DNA of 50,738 bases from an uncultured Dehalococcoidales bacterium (lineage in GTDB: Bacteria > Chloroflexota > Dehalococcoidia > GIF9 > AB-539-J10): contig CAYYUO010000001.1 of NCBI GenBank assembly GCA_964474965.1, positions 1-50,738 on the forward strand, read 5' to 3'. The position numbers and the translations under genes are program-made. Shown piece after piece: positions 5,078 through 47,396 of this stretch. The notes beneath the pieces are model-generated. The model saw only the letters and a list, made by a program, of their open reading frames with translations. It did not search any database and was not told where the DNA came from. Numbering within the stretch: position 1 is the stretch's first letter; every line of letters begins with the position of its first letter.

Positions 5078-5407
5078 CAGCAGCAATCGTAGTCTGCCTT
5101 ACCGAGTACTTCAATAAACTCGATCTCTCGATGGCGTAGTCATACCGGCTTATTTCAAGCGTACTTTACTAAGTGAAGTTACTTACAGAATGGCTTTTAA
5201 ATTAAGTCTTTTCAGCAGTCAAAAATAAGCTCTGAATCAGATGGCAAGTATCAGGCAAGGTGATAAGCTAGAAACAAAGACAGAGCTGGCCTTGAGATTT
5301 TTCAGTGCAGCTCATGTCAATAAAGGAGGCAAAGAGAATGGCAACGAGGGGATATTTTATGATCACTGTGGAGGAGGAGTTCTACCGAAATTATTATCAG
5401 GATGTGC
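5078..5407 (+). repeat. Copy A of a 330-bp dispersed direct repeat (partner 17887..18216)
   Basis: 5078-5274 is identical base for base to 17887-18083 (197 bp, checked by hand). 5275-5407 is ~85% identical and covers the SD and first 23 codons of the RAM-domain gene. Confidence 0.95.
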
Positions 5408-5745
5408 TGAGAGACCTGAAAGCCGTGCCTGAGGTAGATTCCATCGAGCGAATCAGCGGTACATACAACCTCTTAGTGAAGGTTACAGCTCCTATGAGGG
5501 TAATCTTCGTCGCTAACAAAATACTACCCAACAAATGGGTCAAACAGTTCTACATCCTCAAGGTTGAGCCTTTCAAACCCCACGATTACGAAGGGCTCAC
5601 TGGTGATGAGCTTGCAAGGCTTGAAGAGTTAATTCCCCAGTCCTTGGGTGGTTATGGAGGGCTCACTGTTGAGGAGCGTTTAAGGATTAAAAGATTAATT
5701 CACGAGTCGCGGGGTAGTCACGGAGCTGCCGGTATACCGCCTTGA
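5338..5745 (+). CDS. Stand-alone Lrp/AsnC ligand-binding (RAM) domain protein with C-terminal extension, 135 aa
   Basis: MATRGYFMITVEEE...VLRDLKAVPEVDSIERISGTYNLLVKV fits the AsnC_trans_reg/RAM pattern and has no HTH. SD AGGAGG lies 8 nt upstream, so the start is moved from the track GTG at 5305. The tail has two GLTxxExxRxxxLI motifs. Confidence 0.7.
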   Translation: MATRGYFMITVEEEFYRNYYQDVLRDLKAVPEVDSIERISGTYNLLVKVTAPMRVIFVANKILPNKWVKQFYILKVEPFKPHDYEGLTGDELARLEELIPQSLGGYGGLTVEERLRIKRLIHESRGSHGAAGIPP

Positions 5746-5773
5746 ATATTGCAATAGGAAAGGAGGTGAAAAA

Positions 5774-6067
5774 ATGGCAACGAAGCGTTACTTGATGATC
5801 AACATGACCGAGGAAGCTTGCAAAAGTGGTTATCGGGATGTGTTGAGAGACCTGATAACTATACCCGAGGTGCAGTCCATTGAGCAGCTGGATGGTGTTT
5901 TCGACCTTATAGTGCAGGTCGAATGCCCTGCCACAGTGGGATATGCAGCAGCTGACGATCTTCTGGCCAAGGGGTGGGTGAAACGCTTGCAGGTTCTGCA
6001 GGTTGAGCCCACTGAGCCTAGTGAAATTATAAGGCCCACAGTGCTAGAGCTGACAAAAAGAGCTTAG
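5774..6067 (+). CDS. Stand-alone Lrp/AsnC ligand-binding (RAM) domain protein, 97 aa (paralogue of 5338..5745)
   Basis: MATKRYLMINMTEE...VLRDLITIPEVQSIEQLDGVFDLIVQV. SD AGGAGG upstream. Confidence 0.7.
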   Translation: MATKRYLMINMTEEACKSGYRDVLRDLITIPEVQSIEQLDGVFDLIVQVECPATVGYAAADDLLAKGWVKRLQVLQVEPTEPSEIIRPTVLELTKRA

Positions 6068-6121
6068 TCAAGCTATTGTGGCAGCTCCATAGCTATAGAA
6101 ATTTTTGTCAGGGAGCTTAAT

Positions 6122-7270
6122 ATGATAGTGAAGACTCCTTACAGAGAAGCAGTAGACGTCCTGGTGGACGAAGGTGGGGAAACCCTCCAGTTATGTTACC
6201 AGTGTGCCTCTTGTACCGGTAGTTGTCCTTGGGGTTTGGTGAGAGATTTCGCTATACATAAAGTAATTCATGAAGCGCAATTGGGTGTAGTTGATTTTGA
6301 GGATGAAGGCATCTGGCTCTGTGTTGCCTGCGGGGCTTGTGTTAACCAGTGTCCCCGGGGTGTGAAGTTAATAGATGTAGTAAAGGCCATACGTAGAACT
6401 GTGATGGAGCTGGGTGTAGGTAAGATGCCTAGTTCACTACGAGTCGCACTGACAAGCATTGCCGGAGTAGGCAATCCAATGGGCGAGGCAAAGGAAAAAC
6501 GAGCAGATTGGGCCAAAGACATGGACGTAAAGACGTTCACTAAGGGTACGGATTTGCTGTATTTTCCCTGCTGCCTGCCTTGCTACGATCCTCTCTTAAA
6601 GGGTATAGCTGGGGCAACCGCTGCTATCCTAAACAAAGCAGGTATAGACTTTGGTATCCTGGGCGCCAACGAAACCTGTTGCGGAGAGGCAATCCGTAAA
6701 GCGGGAAACGAAAGCCTGTTCCAGAGTCTAGCCCAAAAGAACATTACTACTTTCAGCGAAAACTCAGTTAAGAAAGTTCTCGTCAGTTCCCCTCACTGTT
6801 ATCATACTTTTAAACACGAATACCCCGATCTTGGAAGCGACTTTGAGGTAATCCATTCTACTCAGTATTTATTACAGCTTATCAAGGACCACAAGCTGGA
6901 GTTCACTAAAGAGCTAAATATAAAAGTCGTTTATCACGATTCATGCTACCTTGGGCGTCACAACGGCATATATGACGAGCCCCGAGAAGTCTTAAGGAGT
7001 ATCCCGGGGCTGGAGCTGATTGAGTTTCCAGACTACAGGGAGGATAGCATCTGTTGCGGCGGAGGGTCAGGCAGGCTCTGGGTTGATACAGAGAAGGGAC
7101 AAAGATTCTCCGACATCAGGCTGAAACAGGCTATAGATTTAGGAGTTGAAGTACTGGCTGTTGCCTGCCCCTATTGTATGTCTATGTTCAAGGATAGCCA
7201 GTTAACGGTGGATGGAGGCGAGACTGTTGCAGTTAAAGACATCGCAGAATTAGTCAAGGAGGCGATGTAA
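6122..7270 (+). CDS. HdrD-like / fused HdrC-HdrB Fe-S protein (2x[4Fe-4S] + two CCG domains), 382 aa
   Basis: CYQCASCTGSCP and CVACGACVNQCP ferredoxin motifs, then CCG-type Cys motifs (FPCCLPCY, ETCCGE, DSCY, SICCGGG, CPYC). Confidence 0.8.
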   Translation: MIVKTPYREAVDVLVDEGGETLQLCYQCASCTGSCPWGLVRDFAIHKVIHEAQLGVVDFEDEGIWLCVACGACVNQCPRGVKLIDVVKAIRRTVMELGVGKMPSSLRVALTSIAGVGNPMGEAKEKRADWAKDMDVKTFTKGTDLLYFPCCLPCYDPLLKGIAGATAAILNKAGIDFGILGANETCCGEAIRKAGNESLFQSLAQKNITTFSENSVKKVLVSSPHCYHTFKHEYPDLGSDFEVIHSTQYLLQLIKDHKLEFTKELNIKVVYHDSCYLGRHNGIYDEPREVLRSIPGLELIEFPDYREDSICCGGGSGRLWVDTEKGQRFSDIRLKQAIDLGVEVLAVACPYCMSMFKDSQLTVDGGETVAVKDIAELVKEAM

Positions 7271-7286
7271 CTATAAGGAGATAGAT

Positions 7287-9284
7287 ATGGGCAGAAATGG
7301 ACATAGGAGAATTGGAGTCTATATTTGCCATTGCGGGTTAAATATCGCCGGCACGGTGGATGTAGAAGAAGTAGCTGAATATGCCGCCAGTCTGGACTCA
7401 GTAGTGGTGTCCCGTCATTATAGATATATGTGTTCCGATCCAGGGCAAGCGCTGATCAAGGAAGATATCAAGAACCTAGGCCTTAACCGGATAGTTGTCG
7501 CTTCTTGTTCACCAAGAATGCATGAGCTAACCTTCCGCCAAGTTTGCCAGGATAGTGGGCTAAACCCCTACCTATATGAACAAGCGAACATTCGGGAACT
7601 CTGCTCCTGGGTTCATGACGATAAAAAGATAGCTACCGAGAAAGCAAAAGACATAGTAAGGGCTGCAGTGAGACGGGTTTGCTGGAACGAGCCGCTGGAG
7701 GTTAAGGAAGCGACGTTTAACTCCAATGTTTTGGTAGTGGGTGGTGGCATCGCTGGTATACAGGCATCTTTAGATATTGCTAATGGTGAGCATAAAGTCT
7801 ACTTAGTGGAGAGAGAGCCCTCCATCGGCGGGCACATGATTCAGCTTGATAGAACCTTCCCTACTCTGGATTGCTCTGAATGCATCCTTACCCCCAAGAT
7901 GGCTGATGTAGGGCGGCATCCTTTTATTGAGCTTCTAGCCTACAGTGAAGTAGAGGAAGTATCAGGCTCTATAGGCCATTTTAAGGTAATAGTCAGGAAG
8001 AAAGCGCGGCATATAGACGAGAGCAAGTGTATCGGCTGTGGTGTATGTGAGGAAAAATGCCCGTGGAAGGTGGATAGTGAGTTTGAGATGGGCTTAGCAA
8101 AGAGAAAGACAATTTACATCCCATTTGCTCAAGCTATACCCAATCTGCCGACAGTAGATGCAGACCACTGTGCTTATATTCAATCAGGGGGCAGGAAATG
8201 TGGAGCCTGTATAAAGTTCTGTGAAGCAGGAGCTATAACTCCGGAGACTCTTCTTAATCAGACTGACCAAATTGTTGAGTTCGAGGTGGGCTCAATCATC
8301 GTGACTACCGGCTATGATGTCTTTGACCCCAGCGTGATGCCCCGATATGGATATGGTAAGTATGACAATGTGATAACTGGGCTGGAATTTGAGAGGATAA
8401 CCTGTGCCGCGGGTCCAACCGGCGGTAGAATTGTGCTTAAGGATGGTCGAGAGCCAGAAAGTGTGGCTATCATACACTGCGTCGGTAGTCGTGACCAGAA
8501 CTATCACGAGTATTGCTCACGTGTTTGTTGTATGTATGGGCTCAAATATGCCCATCTGATAAAAGAATTTACCAATGCTGAAGTTTATGAGATGTACATT
8601 GATATGCGTTGTTTTGGAGAAGGCTACGAGGAATTCTACAAGCGTGTTTCTGAAGAGGGAGTTACTTTTATAAGGGGAAAAGTGGCTAAGGTCACTGACC
8701 GCGCCATAACTGAGGAGGAAAAGGGGAAGTTGATCGTGTTGTGTGCGGATACTGTGCTGGGGAGCCTGATACGGGTTCCTGTAGACATGGTTATACTGTG
8801 CACAGCCCTGGAGGCACATTCAGATGCAGGGCAAGTCGCCAAGATCTTTACTCTCAACCGAAGGGCAGACGGCTTCTTCTTAGAGCGGCATGTTAAGCTC
8901 GACCCGGTAGCTACGCCAACCGATGGAGTCTTTATTGCTGGCTGCTGTGAAGGTCCAAAGGATATTCCTGATACTGTTGCTCAAGCGTCGGCAGCAGCAG
9001 CCAAAGTACTGTCGCTGATAAGTAAAGGTAAAATTACGCTTGAATCTGCCGTAGCGCAGGTAGATGAAACACGCTGTCTGGGCTGTGGACGGTGCGAAGA
9101 AATATGCGATTTTCATGCTCCCAGGGTCATTCATACAGACGGGCGCTGGGTTTCCACTATAAATGAGACCTTGTGTAAGGGCTGTGGCGCCTGTGCTGTT
9201 GCTTGCCCAACAGGTGCTATGTCAATCCGGCATTTCACTCAGGAGCAGATACTCAGCATGGTCGAGGCTTTAACGGAGGTATAA
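7287..9284 (+). CDS. hdrA: Heterodisulfide reductase subunit A-like flavoprotein, 665 aa
   Basis: N-terminal IGVYICHCGLNIAG domain, VVGGGIAGIQASLD FAD fold, LDCSECILTPKM, VGSRD...YCSRVCCMY and C-terminal 2x CxxCxxCxxxCP. Confidence 0.88.
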   Translation: MGRNGHRRIGVYICHCGLNIAGTVDVEEVAEYAASLDSVVVSRHYRYMCSDPGQALIKEDIKNLGLNRIVVASCSPRMHELTFRQVCQDSGLNPYLYEQANIRELCSWVHDDKKIATEKAKDIVRAAVRRVCWNEPLEVKEATFNSNVLVVGGGIAGIQASLDIANGEHKVYLVEREPSIGGHMIQLDRTFPTLDCSECILTPKMADVGRHPFIELLAYSEVEEVSGSIGHFKVIVRKKARHIDESKCIGCGVCEEKCPWKVDSEFEMGLAKRKTIYIPFAQAIPNLPTVDADHCAYIQSGGRKCGACIKFCEAGAITPETLLNQTDQIVEFEVGSIIVTTGYDVFDPSVMPRYGYGKYDNVITGLEFERITCAAGPTGGRIVLKDGREPESVAIIHCVGSRDQNYHEYCSRVCCMYGLKYAHLIKEFTNAEVYEMYIDMRCFGEGYEEFYKRVSEEGVTFIRGKVAKVTDRAITEEEKGKLIVLCADTVLGSLIRVPVDMVILCTALEAHSDAGQVAKIFTLNRRADGFFLERHVKLDPVATPTDGVFIAGCCEGPKDIPDTVAQASAAAAKVLSLISKGKITLESAVAQVDETRCLGCGRCEEICDFHAPRVIHTDGRWVSTINETLCKGCGACAVACPTGAMSIRHFTQEQILSMVEALTEV

Positions 9285-9285
9285 G

Positions 9286-9750
9286 ATGAATAAGTTTGAA
9301 CCTCAAATTATAGCTTTTGCCTGCAATTGGTGCACTTATGCCGCAGCTGATCTCGCTGGAACAAGTCGCATCCACTATGCACCAAATGTGCGGGTAATAA
9401 GGGTTATGTGCAGCGGGATGGTAAACCCTATATATGCCCTCAAAGCCTTCGAGGGAGGTGCTGATGGGGTTTTGATTGCTGGTTGTCATTATGTAGACTG
9501 CCATTATCTCAACGGTCCAGTGAAATGCGATGCAATGTTTGAAAAATTGAAGAATGTGGTTCATACCCTTGGCCTAGAGGATGAGCGGTTGAGGCGTGAG
9601 ATGATATCTGCCTCCGAGGGGGTAATATTTGCCCGAGTAATTGAAGAGATGGTTGACCGGCTTAAAAAGCTAGGCCCCTCACCTCTCAAAAGGGCGAGAG
9701 AGGAGGCACCCTCACTTCTCAAAAGGGCGAGAGAGGAGGCAACAGTATGA
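9286..9750 (+). CDS. mvhD: MvhD/FlpD-type (methyl-viologen-reducing hydrogenase delta-like) 2Fe-2S protein, 154 aa
   Basis: IIAFACNWCTYAAADLAG...VMCSGMVNP...GADGVLIAGCH..DCHY matches the FlpD/MvhD family. Start is 2 nt after the hdrA stop. Confidence 0.85.
   Translation: MNKFEPQIIAFACNWCTYAAADLAGTSRIHYAPNVRVIRVMCSGMVNPIYALKAFEGGADGVLIAGCHYVDCHYLNGPVKCDAMFEKLKNVVHTLGLEDERLRREMISASEGVIFARVIEEMVDRLKKLGPSPLKRAREEAPSLLKRAREEATV
9676..9741 (+). repeat. 2 x 33-bp in-frame tandem repeat at the mvhD 3' end
   Basis: ccctcacCtctcaaaagggcgagagaggaggca / ccctcacTtctcaaaagggcgagagaggaggca, one mismatch. Encodes PSPLKRAREEA-PSLLKRAREEA. Confidence 0.95.
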
Positions 9751-9851
9751 ACTTGGATGACATCATCAAGGAATCTGTCAGTAAGCTGAAACAATTAGGC
9801 CCATCGCCTTTCGGAAACGTCAAAAATAAAGTCGCACAGGTGGCAATATGA
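9747..9851 (+). CDS. 34-codon micro-ORF echoing the MvhD C-terminal helix (MNLDDIIKESVSKLKQLGPSPFGNVKNKVAQVAI)
   Basis: ATGA overlap with the mvhD stop (9747-9750), and its TGA overlaps the next gene's ATG (9848-9851). SD AGGAGG lies 7 nt upstream. IIKESVSKLKQLGPSP parallels MvhD VIEEMVDRLKKLGPSP. Confidence 0.4.
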   Translation: MNLDDIIKESVSKLKQLGPSPFGNVKNKVAQVAI

Positions 9852-11023
9852 TGGCACTGGAGAGCGTTGTTAAGAAAACTAGTTTAGAGGATATTATCAG
9901 GGAGAGTAAGACCTTCTATTGCCTGGAGTGCGGCAAGTGTTCAAGTATATGTCCAATTTCCCGATATGACCCCTCTTACTCTCCGCGAGCGATGGTAGAA
10001 GATGCACTTCTGGGACTTGAAGGTGATCTGATCCACAATAAAGAGTTGTTTTCTTGTTTAACCTGCGGTGCCTGCCAACTCAAATGTCCCTCCGATGTCA
10101 ACTATCTTCTCTTCATCCGGAAGATGAGAGCTTTGGCCTCAAATAACGGCGAACATGGGGACTGCGCTCATTCCGGCACCATACAATCTCTAATTCGACT
10201 CATGGCAAATACTGGTGTAGAACAGAGGAGACTGGAATGGCTGTCTAATGGATACCGAACCTCTGACCAGAGCAAGGTTCTGTTTTGGGTTGGCTGTGCC
10301 CCTTACTTTGACCCTATCTTTGAAGACCTCGGGGTCAAAGTCACCGATGTTGCCAAAGGAAGCTTAAGAATACTCAATTCGTTGGGGGTAGAACCGATGC
10401 TGCTTCCCGACGAGAAATGCTGCGGGCATGATATGCTCTGGACCGGCGATGTAGAAACCTTTGAGAAACTGGCCCAGAGGAATGCAGCAATGATAAAGGA
10501 GGCGGGGGTGGAAAAGATAATCTTCTCCTGTCCCGAATGCTACCGCACATTTAAGGAAGATTATCCTAATTACGTAGAGATTGACTGCGAATTGCAGCAC
10601 ATCAGCGAGTTTCTGTCTGAGGCTATAGAAAAAGATGGCCTGAGGTTTAAAAAGATCAGGAAAAAGGTAACCTACCATGATCCCTGTAGATTGGGAAGGC
10701 ACCTGGGCGTTTATGAGCCGCCTAGGGAAGTAATCCAGGCCATCCCGGGCATAGAATTAGTTGAAATGGAACAGAGCAGGGAGGAATCTCTTTGCTGCGG
10801 CACCAGCGCCTTTACTAACTGTGACTCATATTCCAAGCGGATAAGAATTGAGAGATTGCTTGAGGCAAAAGCCACTGGTGCTGATACCCTTATAACCACC
10901 TGCCCTAAATGTCAAATTCACTTCAGGTGTGCCATGGTAAACAAGGGGGAGGAAAAGGGACCGGATATTGAGATTGAGGTTATGGACATGGTGAACCTGG
11001 TAGCAAATGCTTTGGAGGTTTAG
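9848..11023 (+). CDS. HdrD-like / fused HdrC-HdrB Fe-S protein, 391 aa (second copy)
   Basis: CLECGKCSSICP and CLTCGACQLKCP motifs, then CCG motifs (EKCCGHD, FSCPECY, HDPCRLGR, SLCCGTS, TCPKC). Confidence 0.8.
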   Translation: MMALESVVKKTSLEDIIRESKTFYCLECGKCSSICPISRYDPSYSPRAMVEDALLGLEGDLIHNKELFSCLTCGACQLKCPSDVNYLLFIRKMRALASNNGEHGDCAHSGTIQSLIRLMANTGVEQRRLEWLSNGYRTSDQSKVLFWVGCAPYFDPIFEDLGVKVTDVAKGSLRILNSLGVEPMLLPDEKCCGHDMLWTGDVETFEKLAQRNAAMIKEAGVEKIIFSCPECYRTFKEDYPNYVEIDCELQHISEFLSEAIEKDGLRFKKIRKKVTYHDPCRLGRHLGVYEPPREVIQAIPGIELVEMEQSREESLCCGTSAFTNCDSYSKRIRIERLLEAKATGADTLITTCPKCQIHFRCAMVNKGEEKGPDIEIEVMDMVNLVANALEV

Positions 11024-11027
11024 AACG

Positions 11028-13754
11028 ATGAGTGACTCTGTTTTGGTAATTGGTGGTGGCATAGCAGGTATTCAAGCTTCTATCGACCTGGCCAATATGG
11101 GCTTTCAAGTATATCTTGTGGAGAGGTCGCCCAGTATCGGCGGGAGGATGGCACAGCTGGATAAGACATTCCCTACCAATGATTGTGCCATGTGTATTCT
11201 AGCCCCTAAGATGATCGAGTGTTATAGACACCGGAACATCAGGGTATTGAGTTACTCCGAAGTTGCTGCGGTAGAGGGTGAGTTGGGTAATTTCGAAGTC
11301 GAGATACTAAAGAAACCCGGATATGTTGATGAGACCAAGTGCACCGGCTGTGGAGAATGTGCCCAAGTTTGCCCGGTCGAACTGAAAAACGAATTCGACC
11401 AGGGAATCGGCAACAGAAAAGCAATATACAAGCCTTTTGCCCAAGCTATTCCCAACATTTACGTCATTGACAAAAGGGGGACAGCGCCCTGTAAGGCAGC
11501 CTGTCCTGTGGGTCTGGATATCCAGGGATATATTGCTCTCATTTCTCAGGGTAAATTTAAAGAGGCCTTTCATCTCATCAGGCAAAAGGTTATCCTACCG
11601 GCTACCGTTGGCAGGGTATGCACTCACCCGTGTGAGACAGAATGTAATCGTGGGAAAGTGGATGAACCAATTGCTATCGCTGCTCTGAAAAGGTTCGTGG
11701 CTGACCATGAACTGGATACAAGGACAGAGGAGATAGCACCTGCCCCCCGGACACAAGATGCGAAGGTGGCTGTTGTCGGTTCCGGGCCGGCTGGCTTAAC
11801 TGCGGCTAACGACCTGGTTCTTATGGGCTATGGAGTGACTATTTTCGAGGCATTACCTGTTCCCGGTGGTATGCTGGCAGTGGGTATCCCTGACTATCGC
11901 CTGCCTAAGGAAATGCTTAAAAGGGAAATCGAGGATATCCAGAAGCTTGGAGTGGAGATAAGGCTTAACAGTCCCGTGGGTAAAAAAGGTCTAAAACTAG
12001 ATGACCTTTGGCAAGAGGGTTACAAGGCGATTTTCATCGCCGTAGGGGCCCACAAAAGTGCCAATCTTGATATTCCCGGCGAAGGCTTTGAAGGCGTCTA
12101 TCACGGTGTTTCCTTTCTAAGAGATGTCAACCTTGGGAAGAAGGTTACACCGGGCGAAAAGATAGCAGTAGTCGGCGGCGGTAATGTAGCCATCGATGCT
12201 GCCCGAACAGCTCTCAGGCTCGGCTCCAGAGAAGTAACCATCGTATATCGTAGGTCCAGACATGAGATGCCGGCAAATGAAGAGGAGATAGTGGAGGCTG
12301 AGCATGAGGGGATCAAAATTCAATACCTGGTTACCCCGGTAAGAATTTTGGGAGAGGATGGAAGAGTATCAGGTATGGAGTGTATTAAGATGGAACTCGG
12401 GGCGCCCGATGCCAGCGGTAGGAGACAGCCTATAGCTATAGAAGGCTCGCAGTTTACTATAGACGTGGACACGGTTATCCTGGCCATTGGGCAGAGCCCC
12501 GACCTTTCGCTGCTTCCTAAGGATAGTAGATTCCAGGTATCGCCCAGAGGGACATTGGCAGTTGATGATAATAGCCTGGCCACCAGTATGCCCGGGGTAT
12601 TCGCCGGTGGAGATGCTGTGCTTGGGCCAGCCACCGTAGTACAGGCCATAGCAGCAGGACATAGAGCAGCCACCGCCATTGACAGCTATCTGAGAGACGA
12701 GATGATTCCACCTGAACAAGAACCACTCCCGATTACAACCATTGAGGATGTGGACTTGAGGGGCAAAGAGCAGAAAAATCGCGTGGCAATGCCTACCGTG
12801 GCCCCTAAGAAGAGGTTAACCGATTTTAGAGAGGTGAACCTCGGTCTCAGCGCAAAAATGGCGATAGAGGAAGCAAAGAGGTGCCTGAACTGTGGTGGCT
12901 GTTCTGGATGCCGGGAATGTGAAAAGGTCTGCCAGGCTAAGGCTATAAACCACGAAATGAAGGAGGAATTCCTGAGACTGAATGTCGGTGCCATTATCCT
13001 GGCTACTGGTTTCGACTTCTACGACGTTTCAAAACTTGGAGAATATGGTTATGGAAGGATAGCCAATGTTATCACTGCTATTGAGTATGAAAGATTAACA
13101 TCAGCTTCCGGCCCTACATGTGGTGAACTCAAGCGCCCTTCAGATGGCAATATTCCGTCCAATATAGCCTTCATCCAGTGTGTTGGCTCCCGCGACTTCA
13201 ATAACATGCCATATTGCTCCAGCGTATGCTGTATGCATGCTATTAAGGAAGCCATACTAGCCTATGAACATCATCCCGGGACAAAATCTACTATCTTTTA
13301 TATGGATTTGAGAGCGGTGGGGAAACGGTTTCAGGAATATGTTACCAGAGCTAAGGAAGAATACAACGTAACATATATCAGAGGTCGCCCCGGGAGAATT
13401 GCTCTCAATACCACTAATGGCAACCCGATCATCTGGTATGAGAACACTACTACCGGGGAAACGAAGACTTTTGAGGCAGAGCTGGTGATTCTCTCCCAGG
13501 CTTTGATTCCGTCTAAAGGCATTGAAGAGTTAGCCAGCATATTGGGCATAAGTCTAGACAAGTACGGGTTCGCTGAAATTCCAGATAAGCTGTTCTCTCC
13601 TCTCGACACCACTAGACCGGGTATCTTTGCCTGTGGCTATGCTCATAGTCCAAGAGATATCCCTGACTCTGTCGTTCAAGGTTCGGCAGCGGCAGATAGA
13701 GCTGCTGAAGCTACAACAGCTAGAACGCCTAGCTTTGTAGCGGGAGGTGTTTGA
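11028..13754 (+). CDS. HdrA-like flavoprotein with an inserted GltD/NfnB-type NAD(P)H:FAD oxidoreductase module (HdrL-like), 908 aa
   Basis: HdrA N-part (VIGGGIAGIQASIDL, NDCAMCILAPKM, CTGCGECAQVCP). Then a full GltD-like unit (PCKAACPV...CTHPCETECNRG, VVGSGPAGLTAA, VVGGGNVAIDAAR, VFAGGDAV). Then the HdrA continuation (ATGFDFYD, CVGSRD, YCSSVCCMH). Start moved to ATG 11028, which follows SD GGAGG. Confidence 0.82.
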   Translation: MSDSVLVIGGGIAGIQASIDLANMGFQVYLVERSPSIGGRMAQLDKTFPTNDCAMCILAPKMIECYRHRNIRVLSYSEVAAVEGELGNFEVEILKKPGYVDETKCTGCGECAQVCPVELKNEFDQGIGNRKAIYKPFAQAIPNIYVIDKRGTAPCKAACPVGLDIQGYIALISQGKFKEAFHLIRQKVILPATVGRVCTHPCETECNRGKVDEPIAIAALKRFVADHELDTRTEEIAPAPRTQDAKVAVVGSGPAGLTAANDLVLMGYGVTIFEALPVPGGMLAVGIPDYRLPKEMLKREIEDIQKLGVEIRLNSPVGKKGLKLDDLWQEGYKAIFIAVGAHKSANLDIPGEGFEGVYHGVSFLRDVNLGKKVTPGEKIAVVGGGNVAIDAARTALRLGSREVTIVYRRSRHEMPANEEEIVEAEHEGIKIQYLVTPVRILGEDGRVSGMECIKMELGAPDASGRRQPIAIEGSQFTIDVDTVILAIGQSPDLSLLPKDSRFQVSPRGTLAVDDNSLATSMPGVFAGGDAVLGPATVVQAIAAGHRAATAIDSYLRDEMIPPEQEPLPITTIEDVDLRGKEQKNRVAMPTVAPKKRLTDFREVNLGLSAKMAIEEAKRCLNCGGCSGCRECEKVCQAKAINHEMKEEFLRLNVGAIILATGFDFYDVSKLGEYGYGRIANVITAIEYERLTSASGPTCGELKRPSDGNIPSNIAFIQCVGSRDFNNMPYCSSVCCMHAIKEAILAYEHHPGTKSTIFYMDLRAVGKRFQEYVTRAKEEYNVTYIRGRPGRIALNTTNGNPIIWYENTTTGETKTFEAELVILSQALIPSKGIEELASILGISLDKYGFAEIPDKLFSPLDTTRPGIFACGYAHSPRDIPDSVVQGSAAADRAAEATTARTPSFVAGGV

Positions 13755-13755
13755 C

Positions 13756-15435
13756 ATGTCTGATGTTCGCATTGGTGTCTTTGTATGTCACTGTGGCCGC
13801 AATATCGGCGCGTATATAGATGTCCCCCAAGTGACAGAGTACGCCAGAGGGCTGCCAAATGTGGTACATGCCGAGCACAACCTATTCACCTGTTCCGTGG
13901 AGGGAACCTCGGCAATAAAGAAGGCAACAGCGGAACACAATCTTAACCGGGTTGTAGTAGCCTCATGCACCCCCAGAACGCATGAGACACTCTTCAGGTC
14001 TATTTGCGAGGAGGCCGGGCTAAACAAATACCTGTTCGAGATGGCTAATATAAGAGATCAATGTTCTTGGATACATATGGAGTATCCCAAGGAAGCCACG
14101 GAAAAAGCTAAGGGACTTGTCGCGTCGGCGGTTGCCAAGGCTCGACTACTCGAGCCATTAGAAGAGATTGAGATAGAGGTGCTGCCATCCTGTCTGGTAA
14201 TTGGTGGCGGCATAGCCGGGATGACCGCGGCTTTAAACCTGGCAGATCAAGGTTTCCATGTCAACCTGGTGGAGAAGGAAACAGAGCTTGGCGGCAACCT
14301 GTCGACCCTACATAAGCTTTTCCCTACCAATCAGGATGCAAAGGAATTAATTACCCCTCTCATACGCCAAGTGAAGGAACATGACAAAATAAGTACCTAC
14401 CTCAGTGTAAAGGTCAAGGCAGTAACCGGGTTCATAGGTAATTACGATGTTACCCTAGACCATGAAGGTGAGGAGATCAAGCTTAAGGCGGGGACAATCA
14501 TAGTTGCCGTCGGGGCTGAGGAATTCAAGCCAACAGGACAATATGGTTACGGGGAAATGACGGGAGTACTCACTCAACTGGAGCTAGAAAAGCAGATGAA
14601 AGAGGGCAATGTTGATGGACAAAACATCGTGATGATCAACTGTGTGGGCAGTCGTACCGCCGAAAGATCATACTGCAGCCGATTTTGTTGCGTAGCTGCC
14701 ATAAAGAATGCCGCCCTCATCAAGGAAAACAACCCGGCGGCAAATGTGTGGATTCTACATCGTGATTTGATGGCTTATGGCGTAGACTTCGAAGACTACT
14801 ACCGCAAGGCTCAAGAAGCGGGCGTCAGATTCATCCGTTATGATCTGGCAAGGCCGCCTGAGGTTATCGGGAATGGGCATGTTGAAGGGGTAAGAGTATA
14901 CCATCAGCTAAGGCAAAGCGAGCTGGAGCTCCCTTGTGACAAGGTTGTGCTCACGACCCCCCTTGTTCCTCGCAGTGACAACGATGAGATAAGCAAGATA
15001 CTGAAGGTCCCCTTGAGCCAGGAAGGTTTCTTCATGGAGGCACATCTCAAGTTACGTCCCGTAGAGTTTGCTACCGATGGCATCTTCATATGTGGTTCGG
15101 CCCGCTGGCCGGTAGAAGTGAGCGAGGCCATCTTCCAAGGTTATGCTGCTGCAGCAAAGGCAGCAATACCTATGAGAATGGGCTACGTGAAACCCGAGGC
15201 TATAACTGCTTGCGTAGATAAGGGACGCTGTGCGGGGTGTGGTATCTGCGCTACTTTGTGCCCGTATAACGCGATTGAGCTGAAGTCAGATAATGGTAAA
15301 AAGAGTTCGAGTGTAATTACTGCATTATGTAAAGGTTGCGGAACCTGTGCCGCCGCCTGTCCCTCTGGGGCAATATCAATGGACCACTTCAAAACTGAAC
15401 AGATTGTGGCACAAATAGAAGCACTGTTCAAGTAG
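13756..15435 (+). CDS. hdrA: Heterodisulfide reductase subunit A-like flavoprotein, 559 aa (third paralogue)
   Basis: IGVFVCHCGRNIGA, VIGGGIAGMTAALNL, CVGSRT..SYCSRFCCVAA and C-terminal CAGCGICATLCP / CKGCGTCAAACP. ATG lies 1 nt after the upstream stop, with SD GGGAGG. Confidence 0.85.
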   Translation: MSDVRIGVFVCHCGRNIGAYIDVPQVTEYARGLPNVVHAEHNLFTCSVEGTSAIKKATAEHNLNRVVVASCTPRTHETLFRSICEEAGLNKYLFEMANIRDQCSWIHMEYPKEATEKAKGLVASAVAKARLLEPLEEIEIEVLPSCLVIGGGIAGMTAALNLADQGFHVNLVEKETELGGNLSTLHKLFPTNQDAKELITPLIRQVKEHDKISTYLSVKVKAVTGFIGNYDVTLDHEGEEIKLKAGTIIVAVGAEEFKPTGQYGYGEMTGVLTQLELEKQMKEGNVDGQNIVMINCVGSRTAERSYCSRFCCVAAIKNAALIKENNPAANVWILHRDLMAYGVDFEDYYRKAQEAGVRFIRYDLARPPEVIGNGHVEGVRVYHQLRQSELELPCDKVVLTTPLVPRSDNDEISKILKVPLSQEGFFMEAHLKLRPVEFATDGIFICGSARWPVEVSEAIFQGYAAAAKAAIPMRMGYVKPEAITACVDKGRCAGCGICATLCPYNAIELKSDNGKKSSSVITALCKGCGTCAAACPSGAISMDHFKTEQIVAQIEALFK

Positions 15436-15570: not shown

Positions 15571-16236
15571 ATGGATAAGACCAAGGTTCTGCTCGCTGAG
15601 GATCATATAGTAGTGCGAGAAGGCACTCGTGAGCTTATACAGCGTCAACCGGACATGGAAGTCGTTGGTGAAGCCAGCGACGGTGAAGAAGCAGTGGCGC
15701 TGACCGCCAAGCTGCGCCCGAATGTAGTGATAATGGACATCGCCATGCCCAAGCTCAATGGCATAGAGGCTACCAAGCAGATAAAGCAGCACAACCCGGC
15801 TGTAGCAGTGCTGGTACTCACTGCCTATCCTAATGAGGAGTACGTCTTTGCCCTCTTGGAGGCAGGAGCAGCTGGCTACTTGCTCAAGAACGTGCGGGGA
15901 AGCCAATTTATTGATGCTATTCGGGCAGTAAACAGTGGGGAGTCGGTGCTCCATCCTACAATTGCCCGCAGGGTTATAGAACGACTAACATCCCCGGCTA
16001 ACAGTAGCACCGAGGCACAGGCAACCGAGCCCCTGAGTGAGCGCGAGTTGGATGTATTGAAGTTAGCCGCCAAAGGCATAAGCAATAAGGATATTGCCGA
16101 GCAATTATTCCTAAGCCCACGCACGGTCCAGGTCCATCTGGGACACATCTTTACCAAGCTGGGCGTAGCCTCGCGCACTGAGGCTGTATTATACGGCTTG
16201 AGAAGAGGCTGGTTGATGCTCGAAGACCTTCCCTGA
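15571..16236 (+). CDS. NarL/FixJ-family response regulator (REC + LuxR-type HTH), 221 aa
   Basis: VLLAEDH...VVIMDIAMPKLNG receiver motifs. C-terminal LSERELDVLKLAAKGISNKDIAEQLFLSPRTVQVHLGHIFTKLGV. Confidence 0.92.
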   Translation: MDKTKVLLAEDHIVVREGTRELIQRQPDMEVVGEASDGEEAVALTAKLRPNVVIMDIAMPKLNGIEATKQIKQHNPAVAVLVLTAYPNEEYVFALLEAGAAGYLLKNVRGSQFIDAIRAVNSGESVLHPTIARRVIERLTSPANSSTEAQATEPLSERELDVLKLAAKGISNKDIAEQLFLSPRTVQVHLGHIFTKLGVASRTEAVLYGLRRGWLMLEDLP

Positions 16237-16274
16237 TCTGTGCCCGGTTCAAATACTTGAGGGTTGTTACGCAG

Positions 16275-17720
16275 ATGGCTCGATATCTACCAGCCCGGGT
16301 GCTAAAGGTTGTGCGTAATCCCCATTTCTGGGCTGTGGCGGCAATGTTTGCCATTGTCACAGTCTTCCAATACTCGCAACAGACGCTAGGCACAGATTTA
16401 CCATTCCCAGGTCTAAGTCGACATAGTGTAGAACGAGTTTTCCTCCTCGCTCCTGTAACTTATGCCGGTTTTTTCCTTGGCACAAGGGCAGGTATAGCTA
16501 GTTTAGCGGTGGCGTGCGCCATTATGTTGCCCCGGGCCATTTTTATCTCTCCCCACCCCGGCGATGCTTTGCTTGAAAGCGCCGGTGTTGTTGCCATTGG
16601 TGCTGTTGTGAACTTGTTGTTCTATTTGTTTCGAAAGGAAAGGAATCGCTCCCAACAAGCCCTTTCAGCACTGGAAACAGCTAACCAGGAAGTTCGAGAG
16701 TCGCAGGAAAGCTATAAGGGCTTGTTCGAAGGTGCCTATGACGCCATCTGGGTTTATGATTTGGAAGGTAACATTCAATCGGCAAACAAGGCAGCTGCCA
16801 GACTAAACGGTTACCCTGTGGAAGAGTTACTGAGGATGAACATAAGGTCGTTCCTCAGTGATGAAAGCTTACACCTGGCAAGAGAGGTTCAAGATAAGTT
16901 AACTAGAAATGAACCGGCAGCCATGCCCTACGAACAAAGGATAATTAAGAAAGATGGCTCAGAGGCAATATGTCTGCTTGCCACCAGCTTGATTTCCAGT
17001 AATGGTGAGCCAAAGGGTTTTCAGAGTATCGCCAGAGATGTAACTGAAGAGAAGCGAATGCAAGAGAATTTACGCTATTATTTGCAGCAGATTACCAAAG
17101 CTCAGGAGGAGGAGCGGAGGCGTATGGCACGAGAGCTTCATGACGATACAGCCCAACAATTGGTGGTACTCGCACGCAGGTTGGATAACCTTCTTTGTAA
17201 TGCCGACCGTTTATCCCAGCAGGATATTACATTCCTGGAGGGGGTAAGACAGCAAACCGATGAGATATTGGATGGAGTGCATCGTTTTTGCCAGGACCTG
17301 CGACCCTCAGTACTGGATGACCTGGGTCTCCTGCCGGCGCTGCAATCGCTGACCTCCGACCTAACGGAGCACTTTGGAATACCTATTGCCATGGGTAGTG
17401 CCGGCTCTGTGCGGCGTTTGTCTCCCGAGATAGAATTGATACTATTCCGTATCGCTCAAGAAGGACTAAGGAACATGTGCCGGCATTCAAAGGCATCCAG
17501 ATGCTGGATCATGATAGAATTCAGCAATGATAAGGTCGTTTTAAATGTTAAAGACAATGGCCGGGGCTTTAAGTTGCCGGATAGGGTAGAAGACCTGGCC
17601 GCTGTTGGCAAGCTTGGGCTTGCTGGGATGCAAGAGCGGGCCCGACTTATCGGTGGCAAGCTAACAATAGAGTCAAAGCCAGGCAAAGGGACAACCGTGA
17701 GCGTGGAGATCCCAATTTAG
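16275..17720 (+). CDS. Membrane sensor histidine kinase (TM region + PAS + HisKA_3 + HATPase_c), 481 aa
   Basis: Hydrophobic N-terminal ~120 aa. PAS-like region (YKGLFEGAYDAIWVYDLEGN). H-box RMARELHDDTAQQL. ATPase motifs DNGRGF and GLAGMQERA..GG. Start taken at ATG 16275 rather than the track TTG at 16257. Confidence 0.88.
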   Translation: MARYLPARVLKVVRNPHFWAVAAMFAIVTVFQYSQQTLGTDLPFPGLSRHSVERVFLLAPVTYAGFFLGTRAGIASLAVACAIMLPRAIFISPHPGDALLESAGVVAIGAVVNLLFYLFRKERNRSQQALSALETANQEVRESQESYKGLFEGAYDAIWVYDLEGNIQSANKAAARLNGYPVEELLRMNIRSFLSDESLHLAREVQDKLTRNEPAAMPYEQRIIKKDGSEAICLLATSLISSNGEPKGFQSIARDVTEEKRMQENLRYYLQQITKAQEEERRRMARELHDDTAQQLVVLARRLDNLLCNADRLSQQDITFLEGVRQQTDEILDGVHRFCQDLRPSVLDDLGLLPALQSLTSDLTEHFGIPIAMGSAGSVRRLSPEIELILFRIAQEGLRNMCRHSKASRCWIMIEFSNDKVVLNVKDNGRGFKLPDRVEDLAAVGKLGLAGMQERARLIGGKLTIESKPGKGTTVSVEIPI

Positions 17721-17886: not shown

Positions 17887-18216
17887 CAGCAGCAATCGTA
17901 GTCTGCCTTACCGAGTACTTCAATAAACTCGATCTCTCGATGGCGTAGTCATACCGGCTTATTTCAAGCGTACTTTACTAAGTGAAGTTACTTACAGAAT
18001 GGCTTTTAAATTAAGTCTTTTCAGCAGTCAAAAATAAGCTCTGAATCAGATGGCAAGTATCAGGCAAGGTGATAAGCTAGAAATAAAGGCAGAGCCAGTC
18101 CTGAGATTTTTCAGCACAGCTCATGTCAATAAAGAGGACAAAGAGAATGGCAACGAGGGGATATTTTATGATCACTGTGACGGAGGGTTTCTACCGAAAT
18201 TATTACCAGAATGTGC
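17887..18216 (+). repeat. Copy B of the 330-bp dispersed direct repeat (partner 5078..5407)
   Basis: See copy A: 197 bp identical, then ~85% identity through a truncated RAM-gene 5' end. Confidence 0.95.
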
Positions 18217-18221
18217 ACTGA
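18147..18221 (+). pseudogene. 24-codon 5' stub of a RAM-domain gene (MATRGYFMITVTEGFYRNYYQNVH*); possible uORF overlapping the acs start
   Basis: First 11 codons are identical to 5338.. . The SD is degraded (AAAGGAGGC -> AAAGAGGAC). The stop at 18219-18221 overlaps the acs ATG (18211) by 11 nt. Confidence 0.6.
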
Positions 18222-20214
18222 ACTATCTTTACCATTTGAGTCCAGATATTTGCCTCTGAGGAAATTCCTTGATATTTACCAGGAGTCCCTGGAGGAGCCA
18301 GAGGAGTTCTGGGCAGAACAGGCACGTCAGCTGGACTGGTTTAAGACCTGGGACAAGGTTCTGGAATGGAATCCACCCTTTGCCAGATGGTTTGTAGGTG
18401 GGAGATTAAACGCATCGCATATATGTGTGGACCGCCATGTAAAGACGTGGCGCAGAAGTAAGGTGGCTATATACTGGGAAGGGGAGCCTGGAGATGTTAG
18501 AGTTTTAAGTTATTCCACATTATATCGCGAAGTCAACAGATGCGCCTCAGTCTTAAAGAACTGTGGCGTAGGTGATGGGGACAAGGTTGCTTTATATCTG
18601 CCCATGATTCCCGAGCTGCCCATTTTCATGCTGGCCTGTGCCAGGATTGGGGCCATTCACACAGTGATTTTCTCTGGTTTCAGTGCTCAAGCATTAGCTG
18701 ACAGGGTCAATGATATACAGGCCAAGTTACTGGTAACTGCCGATGGGGGATTTCGGAAGGGGAAGGTAATCCCGCTAAAGAGTATAACCGATGAGGCCTT
18801 AACCAAGTGCCCCTCGGTGGAGAGGGTTATTGTAGTTAAAAGGGCTGGTGTTTCGGTAACCATGAAGTCACCAAGGGATTGCTGGCTGCATGACGTGCTT
18901 GTTAAAGCGGCGCAATTTGTGGAACCAGAGCAGGTGGAATCGAATCACCCCCTCTATATACTGTATACCTCGGGGACTACGGGCAAGCCTAAAGGAATTG
19001 TTCACAGTACCGGTGGCTATCTAGTCCAGAACTATTCTGCTTATAAGTGGGTTTTCGATCTTCGAGAGGAATCGGTCTACTGGTGCACTGCTGATGTTGG
19101 TTGGGTCACCGGACATAGCTCAACTGTATATGCCCCGCTGGCACATGGGGCGGCCATAGTACTTTATGAGGGGGCACCGGACTATCCTACAATTGAGAGA
19201 TGGTGGGATATCATCGAGAAATACGGAGTTAGCGTGTTTTACACCTCACCTACAGCCATCAGGATGTTTATGGGATATGGAGAGGCAATGCTGAAGGAGC
19301 ATAACCTCAGCAGTCTGGAACTCCTGGGGAGTGTGGGAGAGCCCATCAATCCCGAAGCCTGGCTCTGGTTTTACCGCCATGTTGGCGGTGAGAGATGCCA
19401 CGTTGTTGATACATGGTGGCAGACCGAAACCGGTGGCATCATGATTTCACCCACCCCTGGCATAATCGAGTGTGTGCCTCTGAAGCCTGGCTCAGCAACA
19501 TTCCCGCTGCCGGGGATAGAGGTTGATGTCGTTGGTGAGGATGGCAAGCCGGTGTCGCCGGAGCAGAGAGGTTTCCTGGTAATAAAGAGACCCTGGCCGG
19601 GGATGCTCCTCGGCGTACACGGAAACCCGGAACGCTACAAGGAATCCTACTGGTCACGGTTCCCTGGCGTTTACTATACCGGCGACTATGCAGTAAAAGA
19701 CAAAGATGGATACTTCTGGGTCTTGGGAAGGGCTGACGAGGTGCTTAAAATCGCCGGACATAGAATAGGAACTGTTGAATTGGAGGACGCTGCCATCTCA
19801 CATCCTCAGGTGGCTGAAGCAGCGGTTGTGGGCAAAGAGGACCCGGTGAAAGGTGAGAGCATCATCATCTTTGCCAGGCTCAAAGAAGGTATTGACCCTT
19901 CTCCGGACCTGGAAAAAGATCTTGCTGGTCACATGAGAAAAGTGGTGGGTCCTATAGCAGTTCCTGATGAAGTTTATTTCGTCCCCAGGCTACCCAAGAC
20001 GAGGAGTGGCAAAGTTCTGCGGCGGGTTTTGAAAGCCGTGGCCAATAATACCAGCGTGGGAGACCTCACAACCCTGGAAGACAAAAGCTCCGTGGAGGAA
20101 ATAATCAAGGTCTATCAGGACCTCAAAGCCATAAGACAAAGCCATGACGGCTTCATCCCTGAACTAATAGCACGTAAGGAGGTAAAATGGAAATTACTCA
20201 ACAAGACTGGATAG
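18211..20214 (+). CDS. acs: AMP-forming acetyl-CoA synthetase, 667 aa
   Basis: EEFWAEQARQLDWFK, YTSGTTGKPKG, YWCTADVGWVTGHS, GDYAVKDKDGYFWVLGRADEVLKIAGHRIGTVELE, PKTRSGKVLRR. The exact start is uncertain because ATG 18211 has no SD. Confidence 0.92.
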   Translation: MCTELSLPFESRYLPLRKFLDIYQESLEEPEEFWAEQARQLDWFKTWDKVLEWNPPFARWFVGGRLNASHICVDRHVKTWRRSKVAIYWEGEPGDVRVLSYSTLYREVNRCASVLKNCGVGDGDKVALYLPMIPELPIFMLACARIGAIHTVIFSGFSAQALADRVNDIQAKLLVTADGGFRKGKVIPLKSITDEALTKCPSVERVIVVKRAGVSVTMKSPRDCWLHDVLVKAAQFVEPEQVESNHPLYILYTSGTTGKPKGIVHSTGGYLVQNYSAYKWVFDLREESVYWCTADVGWVTGHSSTVYAPLAHGAAIVLYEGAPDYPTIERWWDIIEKYGVSVFYTSPTAIRMFMGYGEAMLKEHNLSSLELLGSVGEPINPEAWLWFYRHVGGERCHVVDTWWQTETGGIMISPTPGIIECVPLKPGSATFPLPGIEVDVVGEDGKPVSPEQRGFLVIKRPWPGMLLGVHGNPERYKESYWSRFPGVYYTGDYAVKDKDGYFWVLGRADEVLKIAGHRIGTVELEDAAISHPQVAEAAVVGKEDPVKGESIIIFARLKEGIDPSPDLEKDLAGHMRKVVGPIAVPDEVYFVPRLPKTRSGKVLRRVLKAVANNTSVGDLTTLEDKSSVEEIIKVYQDLKAIRQSHDGFIPELIARKEVKWKLLNKTG

Positions 20215-20510
20215 TATATGAGGAGGTCAGGACAAACCTAATAGCTAAACTGACAGGACGAGTTCGTTTTGGCAGGGTGCTAGGCTTGCCCAAAGAAAAG
20301 TTAGAGTGGATTCGAAACCACTACTGCGAGCTGAGTAAAGAATTCAACATGGAAATTACTCAACAAGACTGGATAGCATATGAGGAGGTCAGGACAAACC
20401 CAATAGCTACACTGACAGGACGAGTTCGTTTTGGCAGGGTGCTAGGCTTGCCCAAAGAAAAGTTAGAGTGGATTCGAAACCACTACTGCGAGCTGAGTAA
20501 AGAATTCAAC
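20187..20510 (+). repeat. 2 x 162-bp near-perfect tandem duplication
   Basis: 20187-20348 versus 20349-20510 gives 159/162 identical (hand-aligned). The junction shares ATGG microhomology with the downstream ATGGGGCAATGA. Confidence 0.95.
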
Positions 20511-20522
20511 ATGGGGCAATGA
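20187..20522 (+). CDS. Small protein made of two tandem 54-aa units (unknown family, HTH-like), 111 aa
   Basis: Strong SD AAGGAGG 4 nt upstream, inside the acs 3' end (28-nt overlap). Unit MEITQQDWI[V/A]YEEVRTN[L/P]IA[K/T]LTGRVRFGRVLGLPKEKLEWIRNHYCELSKEFN occurs twice, followed by MGQ*. Confidence 0.6.
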   Translation: MEITQQDWIVYEEVRTNLIAKLTGRVRFGRVLGLPKEKLEWIRNHYCELSKEFNMEITQQDWIAYEEVRTNPIATLTGRVRFGRVLGLPKEKLEWIRNHYCELSKEFNMGQ

Positions 20523-31895: not shown

Positions 31896-31920
31896 AAGTC
31901 CCTCCTAATCTTGCCATTTG

Positions 31921-32652: not shown

Positions 32653-32734
32653 TTCTTTCCTCCTCAATAATTTATATATCCGACATGTGAGCCGGGGTAG
32701 CTCTTAAGGGCTGCCTCTCTCACCCACAATGACA

Positions 32735-33858: not shown

Positions 33859-33883
33859 TCCTGAACTTTCCTCCAAATTTTTA

Positions 33884-35443: not shown

Positions 35444-35447
35444 TAAT

Positions 35448-47228: not shown

Positions 47229-47396
47229 AATCTGTAAGCTAGAGATTTTGAAAAACTAAACTATTAAGACCGTTTAATTATCACCCTGACCTTAACTGAA
47301 ACGAAAAGGAAGGGTCTCTGATTCTTCGGTCGCCCTGGCGATCCCAGAATGCCAGGGAGATTATTAAACAGTCTCGACGGATAATAGGAGGTGGCA

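Follow-up and report, generated by a model that had tools for sequence, protein, structure and literature searches.

We describe here a family of small proteins with the RAM fold, an Lrp/AsnC-type ligand-binding fold, whose genes stand at the head of operons for Hdr-like enzymes and are recurrently fused to one of the enzyme subunits. The stretch of DNA analysed (50,738 nt, forward strand; referred to below as the window) comes from an uncultured Dehalococcoidales bacterium (GIF9; AB-539-J10; assembly GCA_964474965.1, contig CAYYUO010000001.1). On its plus strand, two such genes, RAM1 (5338-5745; 135 amino acids) and RAM2 (5774-6067; 97 amino acids), precede an array of hdr-type genes that ends at position 15435. 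Judged from sequence comparisons, the family is small, Dehalococcoidia-restricted, distinct from ordinary Lrp fragments and apparently undescribed, and what seems to be new is its specialisation as the leading gene, and often as a fused domain, of electron-bifurcation-type enzyme operons. Our tentative proposal, to which we give somewhat less than an even chance, is that RAM1 and RAM2 are non-catalytic accessory subunits that would dock on the HdrC-type module of the Hdr-like complex.

Fold and family of the RAM proteins

Pfam, a profile search of PDB sequences, AlphaFold and Foldseek agree on the identity of both proteins, and RAM1 and RAM2 are therefore RAM-fold proteins, as had originally been predicted from the DNA alone. 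RAM1 matches the RAM family PF01037 with 27.8 bits (gathering cut-off 25; E = 2.4e-6), over profile positions 2-43 of 73 only, and two relatives, L013_a (27.6 bits) and L009_FUS (27.5 bits), also exceed the cut-off. RAM2, a paralogue with 42% identity to RAM1, reaches 22.2 bits against the same model, under the cut-off of 25 and with only its first half covered; it scores 108 bits against a hidden Markov model (HMM) built for the RAM family itself. When a profile of the wider family was compared with PDB sequences, three stand-alone RAM proteins ranked first (STS042, 2zbc, E = 5.8e-6; PHS023, 2cvi; DM1, 2e1a; E-values from 6e-6 to 2e-5), and full-length Lrp/AsnC proteins followed after them. 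The AlphaFold 2 (AF2) model of RAM1 places residues 4-76 in a beta-alpha-beta-beta-alpha-beta core (strands at 4-11, 33-38, 44-50 and 68-76; helices at 13-28 and 52-62), with a predicted local distance difference test score (pLDDT) of ~90. Its best Foldseek matches are AsnC (2cg4), PH1519, DM1, STS042 and TTHA0845, at probability 1.00 and E-values of 2e-3 to 1.5e-2, with no match at E<=1e-3 and with other ferredoxin-like folds, such as ACT, NapD and Atx1, close behind. The family keeps the G-x-[YF]-D hairpin that RAM domains typically have.

The original prediction also held that the two proteins consist of the RAM fold only and have no DNA-binding domain. The second half of this claim stands: both proteins begin directly at beta-strand 1 of the fold, leaving no N-terminal winged helix-turn-helix (HTH) of the kind found in Lrp/AsnC regulators, and no HTH family was found in either protein by Pfam and NCBIfam scans. 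The first half is too simple for RAM1, which carries in addition a C-terminal tail of ~55 residues with two ‘GLTxxE...L..LI’ helix motifs, a low-confidence prediction for which there is no Pfam match; RAM2 ends without such a tail.

When 1.84 billion representative proteins were searched exhaustively with HMMER, only 98 relatives emerged, nearly all of 60-150 residues; full-length canonical Lrp regulators are essentially absent among them. Word-based searches retrieved 43 clusters with RAM1 and 54 with RAM2, all at least 58% identical, and every relative or locus with a named source is assigned to Dehalococcoidia or Chloroflexota. Five longer relatives have extra sequence: two are tandem RAM-RAM proteins (P0096 and P0108), one joins RAM to a receiver (REC) domain, one joins RAM to HdrC and one carries an unassigned C-terminal region. 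Distant members (P0129, P0147, P0176) lie on short contigs with uninformative neighbours. The number of RAM copies per locus varies and some copies are decayed. In a neighbour-joining tree the RAM2 clade is limited to the close relatives L001, L003 and L004 (related loci are designated here by L and a number), and the HdrC-fused RAM domains form a clade of their own; the tree does not show RAM2 to be their orthologue.

The composition of the family bears directly on the classic model for proteins of this kind. The only documented mode of action for a stand-alone RAM protein is the hetero-octamer of DM1 with FL11 (PMC2995911), and by that precedent RAM1 and RAM2 would hetero-oligomerise with a full-length Lrp/AsnC regulator whose gene lies elsewhere, modulating its DNA binding, so that their adjacency to hdr genes would reflect co-regulation only. 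Neither the 50.7-kb window nor the annotated genes of related loci yielded a full-length Lrp/AsnC gene, hardly any of the 98 family matches is a full-length Lrp protein, and the model leaves the fusion to HdrC, described below, unexplained. We consider the model, which gained no support from the window, very improbable.

Linkage to enzymes and regulators

One check named with the original prediction was whether RAM genes recur upstream of hdr genes in other genomes, and they do. A scan of one genome per GTDB species with a 10-sequence central RAM alignment gave 11 genuine loci, all in Dehalococcoidia (a first contig scan with a narrow RAM1/RAM2 alignment had given no confirmed locus). Genes in these loci were annotated with HMMs built from the window proteins, some of the assignments being checked with Pfam. 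Ten of these 11 species-level loci have between one and four RAM genes in tandem, with hdr genes directly behind them on the same strand; the remaining locus, L012, is uninformative, having only 1.4 kb of downstream sequence. The same arrangement is present in L001, L004 and L005. One locus (L016) has exactly the six-gene hdr operon of the window, with a single RAM1-type gene in front, and in L001 and L004 four or five small genes precede the same operon.

In several sister lineages the association goes further. Six of the scanned loci (L006, L007, L008, L009, L011 and L013), and L005 as well, have their last RAM copy joined in frame to the HdrC N-terminus, giving proteins of 258-284 residues in which RAM and HdrC are joined almost without a linker (‘...LKVEPaEPNPFLDEVCS...’). 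Downstream of these fusion genes come HdrB and an HdrL of full length (1110-1116 residues). Among the best 120 clusters in a search with the fusion protein, about 70 are full-length RAM-HdrC fusions, named ‘HdrC’ or ‘4Fe-4S dicluster protein’ at source and belonging to Chloroflexota or Dehalococcoidia; two further clusters retain decayed RAM stubs, and the nearest unfused HdrC relatives are 63-69% identical to the fusions. Because RAM is recurrently fused to HdrC, these data favour a physical association of RAM with the HdrC module of the Hdr complex. They also speak for a functional link when set against the refuting outcome foreseen with the original prediction, a lack of conserved linkage to hdr genes elsewhere.

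On this basis we propose the following mechanism. RAM proteins would pair through their RAM beta-sheets, RAM1 with RAM2 in the window and a free RAM with an HdrC-fused RAM in the sister lineages; such pairing is supported by the tandem RAM-RAM fusions and by the RAM dimers and hetero-octamers already known (PMC2995911). The paired RAM proteins would then dock on the ferredoxin module, of HdrC type, in the HdrCB proteins and might there make assembly or activity of the Hdr-like complex depend on a small-molecule signal or on an oligomeric state.

The RAM family is not confined to hdr operons. A distant subfamily, here called subfamily B (consensus ‘MGLRAYLL...VDFVDPV’), was traced in metagenome contigs, and NuoE- or NuoF-like genes lie immediately downstream of its RAM genes in 62 of 68 informative loci. 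The operon of this subfamily encodes NuoE, NuoF and a 1235-residue protein to which Pfam assigns 2Fe-2S, GltD, NuoG and molybdopterin-oxidoreductase parts. A further four of the 68 loci have a GltD-like gene within 1.5 kb, in an Nfn-like pair.

Common to both types of locus is a two-component system. In the window, a response regulator (15571-16236, plus strand) and a sensor histidine kinase (16257-17720, plus strand) follow directly downstream of the operon, together spanning 15571-17720. Pfam identifies REC and GerE HTH domains in the former and PAS, HisKA_3 and HATPase_c domains, behind N-terminal hydrophobic helices, in the latter; this is the composition of a NarL/LuxR-type pair, and the L040 orthologues share it. 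About four hydrophobic helices lie ahead of the PAS domain (16257-16700), and the kinase is for this reason probably membrane-anchored. Among the hdr-type loci, an orthologue of the response regulator (265-355 bits) adjoins the RAM genes in nine of ten informative cases, and orthologues of the kinase are paired with it in related loci. In subfamily B, a LuxR-type regulator and a PAS kinase are encoded divergently just upstream in 43 of 53 informative loci and elsewhere in the locus in four more (47 of 53 in all). The conserved unit, as it emerges from gene neighbourhoods, consists of a two-component system, one or more RAM genes and an electron-bifurcation-type flavoenzyme operon.

Whatever the enzyme, a NarL-type two-component system accompanies the family in nearly all cases, which makes a signalling role a serious rival. 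RAM proteins would in that case be accessories of the two-component system, either a co-sensor that binds a ligand or a connector that feeds back on the kinase or the response regulator; as the first product of the regulated operon, they would tune its expression. Transcription regulators classically use RAM domains as sensor modules (PMC2995911), the conserved promoter or leader described below always precedes a RAM gene, and a fusion of RAM to a receiver domain exists (P0129). Set against this, the RAM genes share orientation and tight spacing with the enzyme genes and not with the two-component genes, which are usually divergent; the recurrent fusion partner is HdrC, in about 70 clusters, as opposed to a single REC-fusion cluster in an unrelated context (L024); and three loci (L007, L069, L086) have RAM and enzyme genes with no two-component system within 10 kb. 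Overall, linkage of RAM to the enzyme genes (~97-100%) is slightly tighter than linkage to the two-component system (~85-90%). We regard such a signalling role, the main rival of the accessory-subunit proposal, as rather unlikely.

The variety of enzymes also raises the possibility of a more generic function, in which RAM proteins would be ligand-independent assembly factors, either a private chaperone or an oligomerisation scaffold for Fe-S subunits such as HdrC and NuoE. RAM genes head operons for several different Fe-S flavoenzymes, the ferredoxin-like fold is common to chaperones such as NapD (2pq4 is among the Foldseek matches), the copy number is variable with some copies decayed, and a Pfam match confined to the first part of the model means that the canonical ligand pocket may be lost. 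Nonetheless, the best matches in both sequence and structure are ligand-binding RAM proteins rather than chaperones, the hairpin motif is retained, and a stable fusion to HdrC would be unusual for a transient chaperone. An assembly factor of this kind therefore seems to us distinctly unlikely.

Returning to the proposal that RAM proteins are accessory subunits of the Hdr-like complex, several observations weigh against it. The AF2 model of the RAM-HdrC fusion has a predicted template modelling score of 0.36 and a pLDDT below 55 in its HdrC part, and carries no docking information. No cysteine or other catalytic residue is conserved in the family. The same genomes also contain Hdr modules unaccompanied by RAM (L010, L011, L104), so RAM is not an obligatory subunit, and because the family also heads non-Hdr operons (NuoE-NuoF-Fdh/GltD and Nfn-like), a single conserved docking partner is not obvious. 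The RAM-REC cluster hints at signalling instead. Finally, in a complete 1.6-Mb Chloroflexota genome (L003; CP070793, 10001-12638), three RAM genes and a small gene described below, fam3, are intact at a site where the adjoining CCG-domain gene is truncated to 337 residues and the remaining hdr operon is missing. Every step beyond synteny and fusion is inferred, and it is for this reason that we hold the accessory-subunit proposal only tentatively.

A stronger version would make RAM a built-in allosteric metabolite sensor that gates the electron flow of a bifurcating Hdr-like complex, encoded as a free protein in the window and fused to HdrC in the sister lineages. The signal could possibly be a thiol/disulfide substrate or an amino-acid-type cue of carbon or redox status, and the free RAM paralogues may relay the state of the enzyme to the adjacent two-component system. 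We think this version rather unlikely as matters stand; were it true, it would describe the first ligand-gated flavin-based electron-bifurcating enzyme.

Operon, leader element and neighbourhood

The open reading frame (ORF) map and the Pfam and NCBIfam scans bear out the prediction of a plus-strand hdr array led by two RAM genes. RAM1 starts at an ATG with an AAGGAGG Shine-Dalgarno sequence 8 nt upstream, and a strong Shine-Dalgarno sequence is present at RAM2 also. There follow, all on the plus strand, a first HdrCB-like fusion (6122-7270) with an HdrC-type 2x[4Fe-4S] domain and two CCG domains (Pfam CCG, 110.8 bits; Fer4_8), a full-length HdrA-like flavoprotein of 665 residues (7287-9284), an MvhD/FlpD [2Fe-2S] subunit (9286-9750; PF02662, 161.4 bits), a 34-codon ORF (9747-9851), a second HdrCB-like fusion (9848-11023; Pfam CCG, 114 bits; Fer4_8/17), a 915-residue HdrL-like protein, that is, an HdrA core with a GltD/NfnB-type insertion (11007-13754; Pfam Fer4_20 and Pyr_redox_2), and a third HdrA of 562 residues recognised by NCBIfam (13747-15435). 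Intergenic distances across the operon range from -17 to +54 nt. A consensus scan for intrinsic terminators between RAM2 and the first hdr gene found none, performing no better than on shuffled sequence, and promoter and terminator consensus scans in general gave no more sites than shuffled sequence. The gene order, including the 34-codon ORF, recurs alike in 23 contigs from independent metagenome assemblies, and the array is therefore not an assembly artefact.

All domains of an HdrABC-MvhD enzyme of the coenzyme B-coenzyme M (CoB-CoM) type are present, and the NCBIfam scores stay below the equivalog thresholds: HdrA2 scores 822.6 bits (residues 8-664 of the full-length HdrA-like protein) against a cut-off of 1100, HdrC 79 against 160 and HdrB 37 against 345. 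The first HdrCB-like fusion gives partial TfrB, HdrC and HdrB matches, all likewise under their equivalog cut-offs. Because its components score in this way, we class the operon, from sequence, as Hdr-like rather than methanogen-type Hdr.

The last two genes of the operon appear to belong together. The 915-residue protein qualifies as HdrL-like by its match to PRK12771 (549.8 bits at residues 156-660) with HdrA2 matches on either side, one of them at residues 626-901 by NCBIfam; it comprises a thioredoxin-reductase-type HdrA core and lacks the HdrA N-terminal domain and the C-terminal ferredoxin domain. The third HdrA aligns with positions 1-231 of the HdrA2 model at residues 8-238 and with positions 318-651 of the related HdrA model NF041778 at residues 238-561; it has the N-terminal domain and the C-terminal ferredoxin domain and lacks the inserted ferredoxin domain. 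Since the two domain sets are complementary and full-length HdrL proteins of 1110-1116 residues are encoded in the sister loci L007, L011 and L013, it is plausible that the 915- and 562-residue proteins form a split heterodimer of complementary halves.

The 34-codon ORF, which had been listed among the genes of the operon, is the scar of a tandem duplication of about 100 bp at the junction of the MvhD 3’ end and the 5’ end of the second CCG gene (CCG2), and does not represent an independent gene family. In relatives CCG2 begins with ‘MNLDDIIKETKTFYCLECGKC’ or ‘MNLDDIIKETKTFYC...’, overlapping the MvhD stop codon; in the window, ‘MNLDDIIKES’ is followed by the MvhD-tail-like ‘KLKQLGPSPF’, and the true CCG2 gene begins anew 100 nt further on. 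Independent assemblies of this lineage contain the ORF as well; L001, L004 and L016 lack it. Next to this junction, the C-terminal tail of MvhD contains a separate 33-nt tandem duplication (9684-9750; copies starting at 9684 and 9717) encoding ‘SPLKRAREEA / PSLLKRAREEA’.

A conserved non-coding element, which we refer to as the leader, occupies the 260 bp upstream of RAM1 (5078-5337, plus strand), with a core at ~5189-5270 that includes ‘ATCAGATGGCA’ and ‘TAAGCT’. Its identity to the sequences that precede RAM genes in L001-L004 is 75-82%, and its core is conserved also in L006 and L008-L016. The invariant ‘ATCAGATGGC’ and ‘TAAGCT’/‘TATAGTAAGCT’ core persists where the RAM proteins themselves are only ~40-50% identical, and leaders of subfamily B contain an analogous ‘CACGGATGT...TGGTTAACTT’ block. 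Two other interpretations of the element were set aside. A structured RNA or riboswitch was rejected, as the RNAalifold energies were -6.6 and -0.17 kcal/mol and covariation was absent, folding of the single sequence gave a z-score of +0.37 and there was no Rfam match in the leader even at E<=1. By inspection, a sigma-54 reading of the ‘TGGCAC-N-GGCA’ motif was dropped because L008 and L013 do not conserve the -12 GC; it is also disfavoured by the adjacent regulator being of the NarL type and not an AAA+ activator. We infer that the leader is an activator-dependent promoter with its operator. The whole unit would be transcribed from it, presumably under the control of the adjacent NarL-type regulator and PAS kinase.

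A second copy of the leader, together with the first 24 codons of RAM1 (‘MATRGYFMITVTEGFYRNYYQNVH*’), lies at 17887-18221 on the plus strand, immediately before the gene acs (nhmmer, 149.9 bits). The two copies form a 335-bp direct repeat (5078-5412 and 17887-18221; 96% identical, with the repeat match given for 5078-5377, 12809 bp apart) that brackets the entire block of RAM, hdr, regulator and kinase genes. The 24-codon RAM1 remnant left by the second copy overlaps the start of acs, which encodes an AMP-forming acetyl-CoA synthetase (18211-20214, plus strand; Pfam ACAS_N, AMP-binding and AMP-binding_C). The start codon of acs may be a TTG at 18250, and gene calls in L108-L110 give a protein of 654 residues. 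The hdr operon and acs would thus share one promoter type.

Overlapping the 3’ end of acs is the gene fam3 (20187-20522, plus strand), encoding a protein of 111 residues made of two 54-residue repeats; the underlying 162-nt units, in tandem, share 98% identity. The protein lacks a significant Pfam match and is 69% identical to the fam3 protein of L004; in the relatives L001-L004 the homologue sits between RAM genes. The idea that fam3 or the RAM1 tail conceals an HTH, or that the two are related, was rejected for want of Pfam support and of BLASTP similarity.

In L016 there are four leader elements, at 5164-5242 and 9410-9550 (minus strand) and at 9795-9949 and 19619-19771 (plus strand), one of which precedes a NuoL/Mrp-antiporter-like gene (7508-9067, minus strand). 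Their number, and the position of one copy before an antiporter-like gene, suggest that the leader governs a multi-operon regulon.

Elsewhere in the window, a Wood-Ljungdahl cluster extends over 24877-47028 on the minus strand and encodes NuoE/NuoF-FdhA, DUF3786, MetF, two MetV proteins, HycI, the large and small subunits of a [NiFe]-hydrogenase and CooC, together with a second NuoE/NuoF pair and archaeal-type CdhABCDE/AcsE. MetF, both MetV proteins and the hydrogenase lie at 30966-36311, that is, 15.5-21 kb downstream of the operon, so metFV and the hydrogenase are as remote from it as had been predicted. The hydrogenase adjoins MetV, and the sole MvhD gene is the one in the hdr operon. Beyond the cluster, four units of ~300 nt (47517-48296; 65-76% identical, spaced at 114 and 252 nt) lie inside overlapping unannotated ORFs (47391-48422, plus strand; 47526-48488, minus strand), which suggests a repeat-containing protein.

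Comparison with known systems

The substrates and control of bacterial Hdr-like and bifurcating complexes are little known, and their allosteric regulation has hardly been considered. A ligand-binding-type domain that leads the operon or is fused to HdrC would offer a concrete handle on what such enzymes respond to or act on, with relevance to the abundant uncultured Dehalococcoidia of marine sediment. The promoter type shared with acetyl-CoA synthetase and the nearby Wood-Ljungdahl cluster would place the Hdr-like complex in acetate and C1 energy metabolism.

Several components of the operon have established counterparts. HdrA, the CCG-type HdrB/C proteins and MvhD are shared with the HdrCBA-MvhD-MetFV system of Moorella thermoacetica, and the GltD/NfnB-type insertion in HdrA with HdrL of Desulfobacterium autotrophicum and Syntrophobacter fumaroxidans. 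In contrast to the Moorella-type enzyme, metFV lies outside the operon of the window, albeit with MetFV close by in the Wood-Ljungdahl cluster, and the operon further differs from the known bacterial Hdr-like complexes in having two modules, whose HdrA variants are split and complementary, and in the attachment of RAM genes and of a two-component system. An hdrC-hdrB fusion has likewise already been reported, in marine Chloroflexi (for these counterparts taken together: PMC5736913, PMC2702500, PMC5947623). A published account of the hdr clusters in marine Chloroflexi makes no mention of RAM genes, and our searches of the literature turned up no paper that connects RAM proteins with Hdr.

Stand-alone RAM proteins are themselves known, and the physiological role of the archaeal ones has been called unclear (PMC2995911); the role proposed here would provide one. 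DM1 (2e1a), STS042 (2zbc), PHS023 (2cvi) and TTHA0845 (2djw) resemble RAM1 and RAM2 in having the beta-alpha-beta-beta-alpha-beta fold, no DNA-binding domain and a length of ~75-100 residues. Proteins of the DM1/STS042 type are characterised by the binding of amino acids or other metabolites where dimers meet, with equilibria between dimer and octamer that depend on the ligand; of the features bearing on this, the window family shows the retained G-x-[YF]-D motif. The window family differs from these archaeal and Thermus proteins in several respects: the sequence match is weak, with a Pfam alignment over half of the model, and its members form a separate, Dehalococcoidia-restricted clade; they head redox-enzyme operons, often as tandem paralogues and with recurrent fusion to HdrC; and they often carry C-terminal helical or basic tails. 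With full-length Lrp/AsnC (FFRP) regulators they have the RAM effector domain in common and differ from them in having no HTH, and such regulators were essentially not co-retrieved by HMMER.

To our knowledge, no ACT-type regulatory subunit is known for Hdr or any other electron-bifurcating complex. ACT-type subunits such as IlvN/IlvH of acetohydroxyacid synthase, and the corresponding domains of aspartokinase, are likewise small, ferredoxin-like, ligand-binding modules that are encoded with, or fused to, an enzyme, and both IlvN (5ypp) and aspartokinase (3c1n, 3ab4) are among the Foldseek matches of the RAM1 model. They belong to the ACT and not to the RAM domain family, and the enzymes that they control are those of amino-acid biosynthesis. 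If RAM proteins do act on the Hdr-like complex in the way proposed here, ACT-type regulatory subunits such as IlvN would be their closest functional analogy.

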